DNA of 64,000 nucleotides, taken from positions 45,439 to 109,438 of the forward strand of contig JACOSL010000039.1 in the NCBI GenBank assembly GCA_016179045.1. The letters are read 5' to 3'. Position 1 is the stretch's first letter; the number at the start of each line of letters is the position of its first letter. Of this stretch, positions 588-53,361 are shown one piece after another. The notes below the pieces were generated by a model that searched no databases, was not told where the DNA came from, and saw nothing but the letters and a program-made list of their open reading frames with translations. Origin of the DNA: Fimbriimonas ginsengisoli (lineage in GTDB: Bacteria > Armatimonadota > Fimbriimonadia > Fimbriimonadales > Fimbriimonadaceae). The position numbers and the translations under genes are program-made.

Positions 588-716
588 AGCACCACCCCCC
601 GCGCTTCGCGCGACCCCCGCCGTGAGGCAGGGGTTTCATGTTTTTCTTTGGCTCGCTCACGCCCTCCGGGCCCTCGCTCACCGTTTCTTTGCGGGATGCC
701 ATCCTTGGCGTCCTGA
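588..716. repeat. copy A of a three-hairpin GC-rich interspersed repeat (between the sdhA start and the stop of the Cys-rich protein gene)
   Basis: By-eye alignment with 49692..49833 and 53078..53184. H1 is CCCC-GCC[GTGA]GGC-A-GGGG (about 614-634). H2 is GCCC[TCC]GGGC, flanked by GGCTCGCTC and CTCGCTCAC. H3 is GGATGCCA[TCCT]TGGCGTCC (694-713). Confidence 0.75.
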
Positions 717-749: not shown

Positions 750-1181
750 CTAAGCCTTCATGTCCATCACATGCTTGACCATCTTGTCCCCGCACTTGGG
801 GCAGTTGCCTGCCTTAAGCGCAGTCACGTGGCACTTATCGCAGGCGTAGGTCTCGGCCACCTTGGTCATCGCCTTGCCGCACTTGGGGCACTTGCCCGCC
901 TTGGCGGCAGTGGTGTGGCAGTCCTTGCAGGAGTAATAAACCTTCGCGGTGATCTTCTCCATCTTGTCGCCGCACATCGGGCAGGCGCCCGGCTTGCTGC
1001 TGGCGATGTCGCACATCCGGCAGGAGTAGACGGCGGCTTTCTTGACCGTACGGGTGTGCTTGGCTTTGGCGTGGGACTTCGCCTGGGGCTTCGCCTTCGG
1101 CGTGGGCGTGTCTTGCGCCAGAACGAGCGACAGGCCTACGCATAGAGCTAGCAGGACGAGACAGAACTTCGAAGCACGCAT
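750..1181 (-). CDS. secreted Cys-rich protein with three tandem CxxC...CPxCG (zinc-ribbon / heavy-metal-binding-domain-like) modules
   Basis: The track ORF is 750..1229. I prefer the ATG at 1181 (MRASKFCLVLLALCVGLSLVLAQD, signal-peptide-like), which has GGAGG 6 nt upstream. The three ~30-aa modules are VYSCRMCDIASSKPGACPMCGDKMEKI, VYYSCKDCHTTAAKAGKCPKCGKAMTKV and TYACDKCHVTALKAGNCPKCGDKMVKH. Confidence 0.75.
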   Translation of the reverse strand: MRASKFCLVLLALCVGLSLVLAQDTPTPKAKPQAKSHAKAKHTRTVKKAAVYSCRMCDIASSKPGACPMCGDKMEKITAKVYYSCKDCHTTAAKAGKCPKCGKAMTKVAETYACDKCHVTALKAGNCPKCGDKMVKHVMDMKA

Positions 1182-1258
1182 GATTAACCTCCGGCCGCGC
1201 GATCGCATCCGCGACCCACCGTTGACCATTCTACAGGCTGTTCCGGAAATTTTCCGGG

Positions 1259-7234: not shown

Positions 7235-7282
7235 CGGCCGTTGTGGGCCGGGCCGCCACGCTGGCGCTGCCTCAGGAAGAAA

Positions 7283-7307
7283 CCCTCCAGACGAAACGTC
7301 TGGAGGG
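7283..7307. repeat. perfect 11-bp-stem hairpin CCCTCCAGACG-AAA-CGTCTGGAGGG, one of two near-identical copies in the window
   Basis: Read directly from the sequence, 49 nt after the tmk stop. The core CCTCCAGACG-NAA-CGTCTGGAGG recurs at 51518..51542. No U-tract follows, so it is not a classical intrinsic terminator. Confidence 0.8.
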
Positions 7308-7384
7308 ATTCCGGATTGGGTATCCCCTTGCGAGCTAAGGTCGATAACGACCACACTGGGGGCACAGGAGTCTTCTCCCCAGCT

Positions 7385-49691: not shown

Positions 49692-49833
49692 GCGCCACCC
49701 CCCGGTTCGGCTTCCGCCTCACCGACCCCCGCCGCTTGCGGCAGGGGTAGTCCATTTATCCTTGGGTCGCTCGCGCCGTCCCGGCGCTCGCTCGCCGTTT
49801 CCTTTGCGGACGCCATCCATGGCGTCCCTCGAA
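49692..49833. repeat. copy B of the three-hairpin interspersed repeat
   Basis: H1 is CCCCC-GCCG[CTTG]CGGC-A-GGGG (about 49726-49747), H2 is GCGCCG[TCC]CGGCGC (49773-49787) and H3 is GGACGCCA[TCCA]TGGCGTCC (49808-49827). It shares the leader GCCACCCCCC with copy A. Confidence 0.75.
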
Positions 49834-50371: not shown

Positions 50372-53008
50372 CTACAATCCCGCTGCTCGGAAGCGCAGGC
50401 GCAAGAGGCTCTTGATCTGCATCAGGGTGAAGCCGACGAGGATCGCGCCCATCACCCAGGCGGCGGCGGTGGCGTAGCCGAACTTGAGGAACAGGAACGC
50501 GCTCGTCCACACCTCCAGCCCGATCGTATGGGTCGAGTAGAGCGGCCCGCCCCCGGTGAGCACGAACACACTGTCCATCGCCTTGAACCCGGCGATAAAC
50601 ACGCCGAGGAGGTTGATCAGGATGAGCGGGCGAAGGCCGGGGAGCATAACGCGCCATATCTTCCCCCACCAACTCGCGCCATCAAGGTCGGCCGCCTCGT
50701 AGCGCTCAGCGGGAATGTTCTTGAGCGCGGCTAGATACAGAATCGAGCCGGGGCCGGCGCCCGCCCAGATGCCGGGGAGCACCACCGCGAACATTGCCAG
50801 GTGGGTGCTGCCCAACCAGTCGTGCGACTTCTCGACGTGCCACCAGGGCTGGATCGCGTTGAGCGCGTCGGCTATCGGGGCGAGTATCGAGTTCAAGATG
50901 CCGCTCTCCGAGCGGTCGTAGAACTGCCGCCAGAGGAAGGCGATCACGATCGGGCTGGTCATCGCGGGCAGATAGAACACGGTGCGGAAGAACACCTTGA
51001 ATCGAGGGATCTCGTTGAGGGCGATGGCAAGGAAGATGGGTAGGAAGAACCCGATCACGAGGCTGAGGGCCACGTAGAGAAAGCTGTTTAAGAGCGAGCG
51101 GTAGAAGATGGGCGAGGTGAACGCGGTGACGAAGTTGTCAACGCCGACCCAGCGGCTGCCTTTGACGATCCGGTAGTCCTGGAAGGCGATGATGAGGCCG
51201 CGCAGGAGGGGGTAGTACGCCCACACAATGAGGCTTGCGGCGGCGGGGGCCATGCAGAGGGCGACGAAGCGGGCGGCGCGGCGATGGGTGCGGGCCGACC
51301 CTCCTCCCCCTGTTCCAAGGGGGAGGGCCTGTGAGCGAGAGCGAACAGGGGTGGAGGTCGTCTGATTTGGAGGCGCACCTAAATCACCTCCATCCGGTCT
51401 CGGCAAGCCTTCGACCGACTTCCCCCTGCGCGGCAAGGGGAAGATGGCCGGAGCACTGGCACTCGTACCGTCCCTACCCGGATGGACCGACGCCGACCCA
51501 TCATCGGAGGGGGGATAGCCTCCAGACGGAACGTCTGGAGGCATGGCGAAACGCGCGGCACGACGCCATGCGGCGATACCCCACCAGGCGAGGGTGAGGA
51601 AAAACGCGCCCAAGATTCCGGTCGCCCAACCGCGCTGGCGCGCAAGCACGTCGGGCGGGGTGTAGCCGAGCAGCTTGCGATCCATCTGCCGGGCGACGTC
51701 GTGCAAGATCGAACGGGCGGGAGTATCGGGTTCGAGCACGGCGCGGTCGAGGGCTTCGTCGAGCACGAGATAGGCCTGCTGGCAGTTGCGGCCGTACGGC
51801 TCGGGGTGGCCGGACTTGAACACCTCGTCGTTGGCGCGCACCCACCCGGGATCGATGGTGGCAAGCTGGTCCTTGTAGCCGAAGCGGCGCAGCCAGGTCG
51901 GAATGACGAGGTTGCCCATCCCCATCTCAACGAAGCGCTGGGTGTTGATCTTCGCCGCCTCGTCGCCCGCGAAGTAACGGATGAACCGCCAGCAGGCGTC
52001 GAGCTTCTTGGGATCGGTGACGGAGGCGTTGATCGCCCACATGCCGGCGTTGATCTCGTTCGCATGGCCGTCGGGACCGGCGGGCAGCGCGGCGACCCCG
52101 ATGAGCGACGGGTTGAGGTCGGCCATGTTCATCACCACGTCGCCCGTGTAGCCCAGCCACATCGAGACCTTGCCATCGAGGATGTCTTGCGAATACGTGG
52201 GCGACACGGCGGCGACGGGGCCGTGGCTCTTGCCATCCTTGCCGGTCCAAGTCTCGGCCACGAGGCGGCGATAGAAATCAAGCGCGGTGGCCACCTGAGG
52301 CGTATCGATTGTGGAGCGCCAGAAACCGCCTTCGGCAGGCTCAACCACCTCGCCGCCCGCCTGCCAGACGAAGTCCACCCAGTGGTAACCGCGGCTGCCC
52401 ATGCCGTTGCTGAAGGCAAAGCCGTTGCGGCCCTCCTTTGATTCGGTCAGACGGCGGCCATAGGCGAGGAACTCATCCCAATCGCTTGGGGGCCGGTTCG
52501 GGTCGAGGCCCGCCTCGGCAAAATGGTCGCGCCGGTAATACAGCGCCATCGCGACCTGAAACCACGGGATCGCGTAGAGCTTGCCGTCGTAGCTGCGCAG
52601 CACCTTGCCGACGATCGGATTGAGTCGCTCGAGCGCTTCGGGGTTTTTGGCGACGAGGTCGTCGAGCGGGCGGCAGAAACCCTGATCGATGTAGTTGTAG
52701 TACTGGCGGAAGTTGACGTAGAACACGTCTGGCGCGGTATCGCCCGCCATCGACATGAGGAAGCCCGACTCCTGCATGTCGCCTTTCAGCTCCAAGCCGC
52801 CCGCGTTGACCACCTCGACGTCAGGGTTCTGGCGATGGAACTCCTCGAACACGGCGCGCCGGGCAAGCGAGCGGGGGTTGGTGTCTTCTTTGGGTGGGAT
52901 GCCCTGCGATGGGCCCGCCATCATGCGGATCGTGGTCTTCTGAGCCGCGGCGAGCGCGCAGGCGAGAAACGCCACGCAGCAGATGAGCGCCCGGCCCCAG
53001 ATCGGCAT
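50372..53008 (-). CDS. fusion of a family-1 extracellular solute-binding protein and a MalF/UgpA-type ABC permease, joined by an extra TM helix and a low-complexity linker
   Basis: A single uninterrupted 878-codon ORF. The N-terminus has a signal peptide plus an SBP_bac_1-like domain. The extra TM helix is GWATGILGAFFLTLAWWGIAAW. A ~100-aa Pro/Gly/Ser/Arg linker follows, then a permease with a 6-TM layout and an EAA-type loop region (AERYEAADLDGASWWGKIWRVMLP). Confidence 0.75.
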   Translation of the reverse strand: MPIWGRALICCVAFLACALAAAQKTTIRMMAGPSQGIPPKEDTNPRSLARRAVFEEFHRQNPDVEVVNAGGLELKGDMQESGFLMSMAGDTAPDVFYVNFRQYYNYIDQGFCRPLDDLVAKNPEALERLNPIVGKVLRSYDGKLYAIPWFQVAMALYYRRDHFAEAGLDPNRPPSDWDEFLAYGRRLTESKEGRNGFAFSNGMGSRGYHWVDFVWQAGGEVVEPAEGGFWRSTIDTPQVATALDFYRRLVAETWTGKDGKSHGPVAAVSPTYSQDILDGKVSMWLGYTGDVVMNMADLNPSLIGVAALPAGPDGHANEINAGMWAINASVTDPKKLDACWRFIRYFAGDEAAKINTQRFVEMGMGNLVIPTWLRRFGYKDQLATIDPGWVRANDEVFKSGHPEPYGRNCQQAYLVLDEALDRAVLEPDTPARSILHDVARQMDRKLLGYTPPDVLARQRGWATGILGAFFLTLAWWGIAAWRRAARFAMPPDVPSGGYPPSDDGSASVHPGRDGTSASAPAIFPLPRRGKSVEGLPRPDGGDLGAPPNQTTSTPVRSRSQALPLGTGGGGSARTHRRAARFVALCMAPAAASLIVWAYYPLLRGLIIAFQDYRIVKGSRWVGVDNFVTAFTSPIFYRSLLNSFLYVALSLVIGFFLPIFLAIALNEIPRFKVFFRTVFYLPAMTSPIVIAFLWRQFYDRSESGILNSILAPIADALNAIQPWWHVEKSHDWLGSTHLAMFAVVLPGIWAGAGPGSILYLAALKNIPAERYEAADLDGASWWGKIWRVMLPGLRPLILINLLGVFIAGFKAMDSVFVLTGGGPLYSTHTIGLEVWTSAFLFLKFGYATAAAWVMGAILVGFTLMQIKSLLRLRFRAAGL
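51518..51542. repeat. perfect 11-bp-stem hairpin GCCTCCAGACG-GAA-CGTCTGGAGGC inside the SBP::permease ORF
   Basis: Read directly from the sequence. It has the same core as 7283..7307. On the coding (minus) strand it is translated as PPDVPSGG. Confidence 0.8.
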
Positions 53009-53077
53009 GGCGCAAACTTACCCCGCCATTCGTGGCAGGCCACTTATCAGCACTGCCTCGTCCCCTCACCCAACCTG

Positions 53078-53184
53078 CCCCACCCTCAAGGGAGGGGATG
53101 TTCTTCTTTGGCTCGCTCGCGCCGATTTCATCGGGGCTCGCTCACCCGTTCTTTTCGCAACGACATCCCTGGCGTTGCCTGAAG
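53078..53184. repeat. copy C of the three-hairpin interspersed repeat
   Basis: H1 is CCCC-A-CCC[TCAA]GGG-A-GGGG (53079-53098), H2 is GCCGAT[TTC]ATCGG (about 53121-53135) flanked by GGCTCGCTC and GCTCGCTCAC, and H3 is CAACGACA[TCCC]TGGCGTTG (53158-53177). It lies between the SBP::permease start and the recA promoter. Confidence 0.75.
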
Positions 53185-53332: not shown

Positions 53333-53361
53333 TTGACGCGCGTGCGCTATTCTGTTACACT
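53333..53361 (+). promoter_or_regulatory. candidate sigma-70 promoter of recA: TTGACG -17 nt- TACACT
   Basis: The -35 is at 53333-53338, the spacer is 17 nt, and the -10 is at 53356-53361, 30 nt upstream of the recA ATG. Sequence pattern only. Confidence 0.5.

Follow-up and report, generated by a model that had tools for sequence, protein, structure and literature searches.

REP/BIME elements are short, GC-rich imperfect palindromes with a conserved mismatch, which occur in tens or more of extragenic copies. They form mosaics with other short motifs, are lineage-specific and lack both terminal inverted repeats (TIR) and target-site duplications (TSD). BOX of Streptococcus pneumoniae and ERIC/IRU of enterobacteria are modular, structured intergenic repeats of about 100–150 nt; they reach about a hundred copies and can be co-transcribed with neighboring genes. 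PATE, derived from IS200/IS605, carry hairpins near both ends, again with no TIR and no TSD. A three-hairpin repeat of an uncultured Armatimonadota bacterium shares all these traits of the first class, the modular structured organization and the size of the second, and the hairpin-bearing ends of the third. It is a new family of the ordinary bacterial "selfish" intergenic repeat kind, and is probably a lineage-specific, non-autonomous mosaic hairpin repeat of the REP/BIME/BOX/ERIC class, with dozens of copies.

The repeat-bearing host is an uncultured Armatimonadota MAG from groundwater, whose RecA is 78% identical to that of an Armatimonadetes MAG and 75% to that of a Fimbriimonadaceae MAG. 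The sequence of the window (the whole stretch of 64,000 nt that was analyzed) is found in four groundwater-metagenome runs of one study, and SRR12113389 is the source metagenome run used for contig placement. Three full copies, A, B and C, are present where the original prediction placed them, all on the plus strand. They are homologous by blastn, nhmmer and a covariance model; A and B are 81.5% identical over 108 nt (E=1e-20, blastn), and A and C 76% over 87 nt (E=6e-11, blastn). Both the nhmmer profile and the covariance model, which was built from the three copies and run over the 64 kb with filters off, recover only these copies, with covariance-model scores of 122 bits for A, 114.6 for B and 106.3 for C, and at most 13.8 for the next best site. 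All three contain the hairpins H1, H2 and H3 as first described, with a CTCGCTC direct repeat bracketing H2, in a family unit of about 105–135 nt.

Copy A occupies 592–713 (some family copies begin at 574), as delimited by sequence, by a covariance-model match at 610–717 and by the edges of contig depth. It opens with a C-rich tract (592–599) and a small hairpin, CGCGC-TTC-GCGCG (600–612), which are followed by H1 (614–633), a variable T-rich spacer (634–647), TTGG (648–651), the first CTCGCTC (652–658), H2 (661–671), the second CTCGCTC (673–679), ACCGTTTCTTTGCG (680–693) and H3 (694–713). Copy B, from 49692/49695 to 49827 on the same kinds of evidence (covariance-model match 49722–49831), begins with a C-rich tract and the hairpin CGGT-TC-GGC[TTCC]GCC-TC-ACCG, and continues with H1 (49726–49747), GTCGCTC (49766–49772), H2 (49773–49787), CTCGCTC (49787–49793) and H3 (49808–49827). 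Copy C runs from 53074/53078 to 53177 (covariance-model match 53074–53181) and is without the left-hand hairpin found in A and B. Its H1 (53078–53097) has an A.A mismatch and an inner CCC/GGG stem, and is followed by the first CTCGCTC (53112–53118), a longer H2 (53119–53137), the second CTCGCTC (53137–53143) and H3 (CAACGACA..TGGCGTTG, 53158–53177). All of these modules were read from the plus strand.

The claim that these copies belong to an interspersed family is borne out by contig depth, which points to dozens of copies genome-wide. In the source metagenome, 62 other contigs align to copy A, 16 to copy B and 26 to copy C, and summed depth, 7–9 at baseline, peaks near 390 for A, near 257 for C and near 68 for B. 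The contigs listed have depths of 6.9–10.2, as against 7.3–9.2 for the host contigs, and the core is read as roughly 45 genome equivalents in one organism, a lower bound, since only copies with at least 80% likeness to the reference are counted; other organisms in the sample could be the source of some extra contigs. Depth also marks the edges of the element. On copy A it climbs from 7.3 to about 390 over 574–610 and is back to 8.9 at 713–717; on copy B it rises at 49692–49695 and falls at 49827–49831, and on copy C it rises at 53074–53078. The right end is thus sharp and is the end of the H3 stem, and the left end is the C-rich tract, with or without the small variable hairpin. Flanking sequence on the left varies from copy to copy and also among the consensuses of loose ends.

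Contigs of the source sample (Logan) terminate at the repeats, which accounts for the fragmentation of assemblies of this organism. On copy A, a gene caller has placed a 32-aa partial "protein" (MASRKETVSEGPEGVSEPKKNMKPLPHGGGRA; L093 1437–1532, which is window 702–607 on the minus strand). Together, the contig ends and this call indicate that the repeats break up assemblies and also give rise to spurious ORFs. A coding function was rejected, because indels of lengths not divisible by three put the copies in different reading frames.

The three stems are shown to be kept by compensatory changes. Imposing the three-hairpin structure on the alignment of the three copies gives standard pairs in 93.7% of the pair cells, with four pairs altered at both positions. 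Column shuffling matched this in just 4 of 500 trials, and slid controls pair at 35–48%. RNAalifold, with no structure supplied, predicts the same three hairpins from the alignment and lengthens H2 by pairing parts of both CTCGCTC repeats together. Folded as single sequences, A and B each form H1, H2 and H3, with energies better than those of dinucleotide shuffles (z -2.7 to -3.6); the energy of copy C is no better than shuffles (z -0.25 and -0.69).

The compensatory changes recur in the extra copies, as read from per-position counts and matching depths rather than from full sequences. In copy A coordinates, the H2 variants 664C>G, 668G>C and 671C>G are carried by the same 10 contigs at an identical depth of 92.4, and 661G>C by nine of these ten, so that the pairs 661–671 and 664–668 both flip. 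A further change, 672C>G (11 contigs), together with 659A>G, restores two outer pairs of H2 that are missing in A and present in B. Among the contigs placed on copy C, GCGCCC-TCC-GGGCGC is the H2 consensus of seven, and other contigs carry the H3 variant CAACGCCA..TGGCGTTG, which makes the swap of the outer H3 pairs from GG/CC to CA/TG a subfamily trait and not a quirk of copy C. H1 is nearly invariant in the extra copies, C.A mismatch included: neither mismatch position (618 and 629) has a variant at 5% or more among the contigs on copy A. The weak point of the structural argument as first put forward is its appeal to GNRA-like and CUUG-like tetraloops, for the H1 loop varies (625 A>T in four contigs, and TCAA in copy C).

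Stems that covary are also what would be expected of a multi-copy structured small RNA gene family, or of a cis element acting at the RNA level, whose hairpins would be selected in RNA. The H1 mismatch lends itself to this reading, since C.A on the plus strand is a G.T/G.U wobble on the opposite strand, and it is the minus strand that folds better, by 6–10 kcal/mol in all three copies. The strand evidence conflicts, as the H1 mismatch favors the minus strand and the H3 wobble of copy A (T.G) lies on, and favors, the plus strand; this counts against the mosaic-repeat reading. The surroundings of the copies argue against an RNA gene. The gene contexts named for A, B and C at the outset proved correct. 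Copy A lies between two minus-strand genes, an HMBD/zinc-ribbon lipoprotein (750–1229) and a FAD_binding_2 SdhA/FrdA-like gene that starts at 477; copy B lies between the end of a hypothetical plus-strand ORF (49659) and the 3' end of the minus-strand tmRNA (49960); and copy C separates two divergent gene starts, that of the SBP::permease fusion (minus strand, 53008) and that of recA (plus strand, 53388), and precedes a promoter-like site on the recA side (53333–53361). The three full-length copies are therefore intergenic, but their orientation to genes is inconsistent, antisense between tandem genes (A), between convergent genes (B) and between divergent ones (C), so that they are not tied to the regulation of one gene. 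In addition, a consensus scan found no promoter-like site within or beside the copies, and no RNA run contains the element, the metatranscriptome contigs covering only the tmRNA, of other organisms. With no Rfam match, and with no member of the family found in the relatives examined, which would be unusual for a functional RNA, a small RNA or RNA-level element appears unlikely.

Two observations on this context stand apart. The lipoprotein-like ORF beside copy A (750–1229, minus strand) is made of repeated CxxC...CPxCG units, matches the HMBD model in three stretches as well as a double zinc-ribbon model, and has a tandem periodicity of 87–93 nt in its DNA. An integron attC site was also considered as an identity for the element and rejected on context, since housekeeping genes surround it and a cassette array is lacking.

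The family is best read as lineage-specific, having not been found in the nearest-relative loci examined. No copy is present at the recA loci of Armatimonadota relatives (nearest 77–78% RecA identity), in the closest syntenic contig available (77% RecA) or in the contig of the best ortholog found (69% identical), and the orthologous spacer between the fusion gene and recA measures 140 nt in the relative L004 versus 380 nt here. The original statement that the repeat belongs to no known family agrees with a search of Rfam 15, in which no family reaches its gathering threshold on A, B or C (best E at least 0.12, far under thresholds); the only matches passing in the window are RNase P, tmRNA and one tRNA. 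Pattern scans with the H2 core over GTDB genomes, JGI metagenomes and viral contigs gave no Armatimonadota match, only chance matches and an unrelated Steroidobacteraceae repeat. A blastn search of plasmids found no family member, and a word-indexed protein search for copies via spurious ORFs found nothing. An exhaustive profile search via a spurious ORF returned five long proteins with several short matched stretches each, taken as compositional. In the literature on Armatimonadota, no paper describing repeat families was found.

The unrelated repeat retrieved by the H2-core scans is a palindrome, GGGCGGG-TTGGCTCGCTCGCGCC..GCGCTCGCTCGCC-ACCCGCCC, which carries a paired CTCGCTC core like that of H2. 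It was seen in six soil-metagenome sources (L085, L087, L088, L089, L091 and L092) and in Steroidobacteraceae and Gammaproteobacteria MAGs (L096 and L097). Its CTCGCTC pair could be due to chance or convergence, the likeness being confined to the pattern that was searched for.

It could be argued that the host has recruited the hairpins as intrinsic terminators or as mRNA-stabilizing 3' hairpins. On the plus strand, H1 is GC-rich and is followed by a T-rich stretch, and a consensus scan flags terminator-like stems in copy A (621–640, partly overlapping H1) and in copy C (53083–53096, within H1); the stem flagged in copy B is a different one, near H2. Yet no part of the element varies more among the contigs on copy A than the T-rich spacer, and terminator-like sites are not commoner than in shuffled sequence. 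Moreover, both genes at copy A are on the minus strand, where no hairpin has a T-run after it, and copy C sits between divergent gene starts, upstream of the promoter-like site of recA. A role as terminator or 3' stabilizer is thus an improbable explanation of the family.

A miniature inverted-repeat transposable element moved by a DDE transposase would fit the size, the copy number and the intergenic dispersal of the repeat, and a MITE-like nature was among the original suggestions. This option fared badly, since TIR and TSD were looked for and neither rises above chance. The left end scores 5–7 against the reverse-complemented right end, with a shuffle mean of about 5, and the flanks of the occupied sites share only words of 4–5 nt at inconsistent offsets. 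Besides, on its right the element stops where a hairpin stem does, and a MITE is therefore quite improbable. A dispersed protein-binding site, in which the two CTCGCTC repeats, 21–25 nt apart, would form an array for a DNA-binding protein, is highly improbable, for although these repeats are the best-conserved primary sequence of the element and the unrelated Steroidobacteraceae MAG family has the same paired motif, RNAalifold pairs parts of both as an extension of H2, their spacing varies (21, 21 and 25 nt in the three copies) and the Steroidobacteraceae match may be an artifact of the search pattern, about 1–3 chance matches being expected by our own estimate.

The model proposed for the mosaic hairpin repeat is that it spreads by copying and insertion as folded single-stranded DNA, by analogy with REP–RAYT and IS200/IS605, and that its foldability would be kept because the single-stranded form is what gets recognized. 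The imperfect hairpin of H1 type may act as the recognition unit for a trans-acting enzyme, and the putative mobilizer would most plausibly be an HUH/Y1 transposase like RAYT or the TnpA of IS200/IS605. The C-rich tract with its small hairpin, the H2 core and H3 would travel along as a mosaic, and any effects on neighboring transcripts would be secondary. No transposase (RAYT, IS200 or other) is recognizable by eye among the ORF translations of the window, eight ORFs of which were scanned against Pfam. A more far-reaching proposal, held with little confidence, is that Armatimonadota have an undescribed single-strand mobilization system which takes the H1-type hairpin, marked by an invariant C.A (G.T) mismatch, as its recognition unit; alternatively, the three hairpins together would make up a multi-copy RNA with a function of its own. 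If true, such a mobilization system would assemble mosaic elements and could place them within genes in frame.

A probable solo left module lies on the plus strand at 51385–51447, within the linker of the SBP::permease ORF. In this 60-nt unit, GAC joins a CGGTC..GACCG hairpin to a following H1-type one, CCCC-C-TGC[GCG]GCA-A-GGGG, in which a hairpin scan finds the C.A mismatch and the orientation of H1. It too is multiple, with 51 contigs and a depth of about 390 versus 8.7, and an exact 27-mer of it has no Armatimonadota match. Its small first hairpin is built like that in the left part of copy B, to which the unit has a local similarity score of 22, reached by 29 of 2000 shuffles; kinship with the left part of copy B, as a solo left module, is suggestive but not proven. 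The four H1-type hairpins in the window are all on the plus strand, which hints at a strand bias, n=4 being too small a number, and GC skew is positive on that strand across most of the window (1–64000).

The ORF that holds this unit (50372–53008, minus strand) has a linker of 95 aa, compared with 21 aa in the L004 ortholog, and the fusion protein measures 878 aa, all orthologs listed having 770–853 aa. The extra linker DNA (51265–51550) is made of hairpin repeats at 51298–51330, 51385–51447 and 51514–51544, and the frame stays open; judged by sequence, it looks like an in-frame repeat insertion of the kind made by Rickettsia palindromic elements (RPE). The last of these is a third small hairpin repeat, CCTCCAGACG-NAAA-CGTCTGGAGG (repeat family D17), which is also found at 7279–7309, with 87% identity between the two.

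Armatimonadota are poorly studied, and a repeat family with clear modules explains the fragmented assemblies of this organism and provides a marker for the host lineage. It is also a workable system in which to seek the enzyme that moves hairpin repeats outside Proteobacteria, and the in-frame insertion in a transporter linker suggests that such repeats can also reshape proteins.

With regard to known systems, the likeness to RPE lies in the 60-nt unit and the neighboring hairpin repeats, which sit in frame within a gene that stays unbroken; it is limited to 51265–51550, whereas the three full copies are intergenic. Neither BOX nor ERIC/IRU has any sequence relation to the Armatimonadota element, and in BOX, boxA pairs with boxC in one long stem, in contrast to the three independent local hairpins found here. 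The single-strand logic of PATE would explain the same-strand orientation of the copies. However, the rule in IS200/IS605 is that the left and right ends carry similar hairpins, and here H1 (CCCCCGCC..GGCAGGGG) and H3 (GGAYGCCA..TGGCGTCC) are dissimilar and unrelated in sequence; nor is there a fixed target of four or five conserved nucleotides 5' of the left end, the flanks of A and B being different. As for REP/REPIN, H1, with its 20–22 nt, has the dimensions of the imperfect palindrome of 20–40 nt in many extragenic copies. The window copies have no GTAG-like 5' tetranucleotide beside H1, and the window's four H1-type hairpins all face one way, none of them paired in an inverted doublet; for these two reasons the element is not filed as REP proper. 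It differs from REP/BIME also in combining three hairpins in one fixed unit of about 105–135 nt. Among the options named in the original prediction, it is nevertheless the REP/BIME-like one, read as a mosaic, that fits best.
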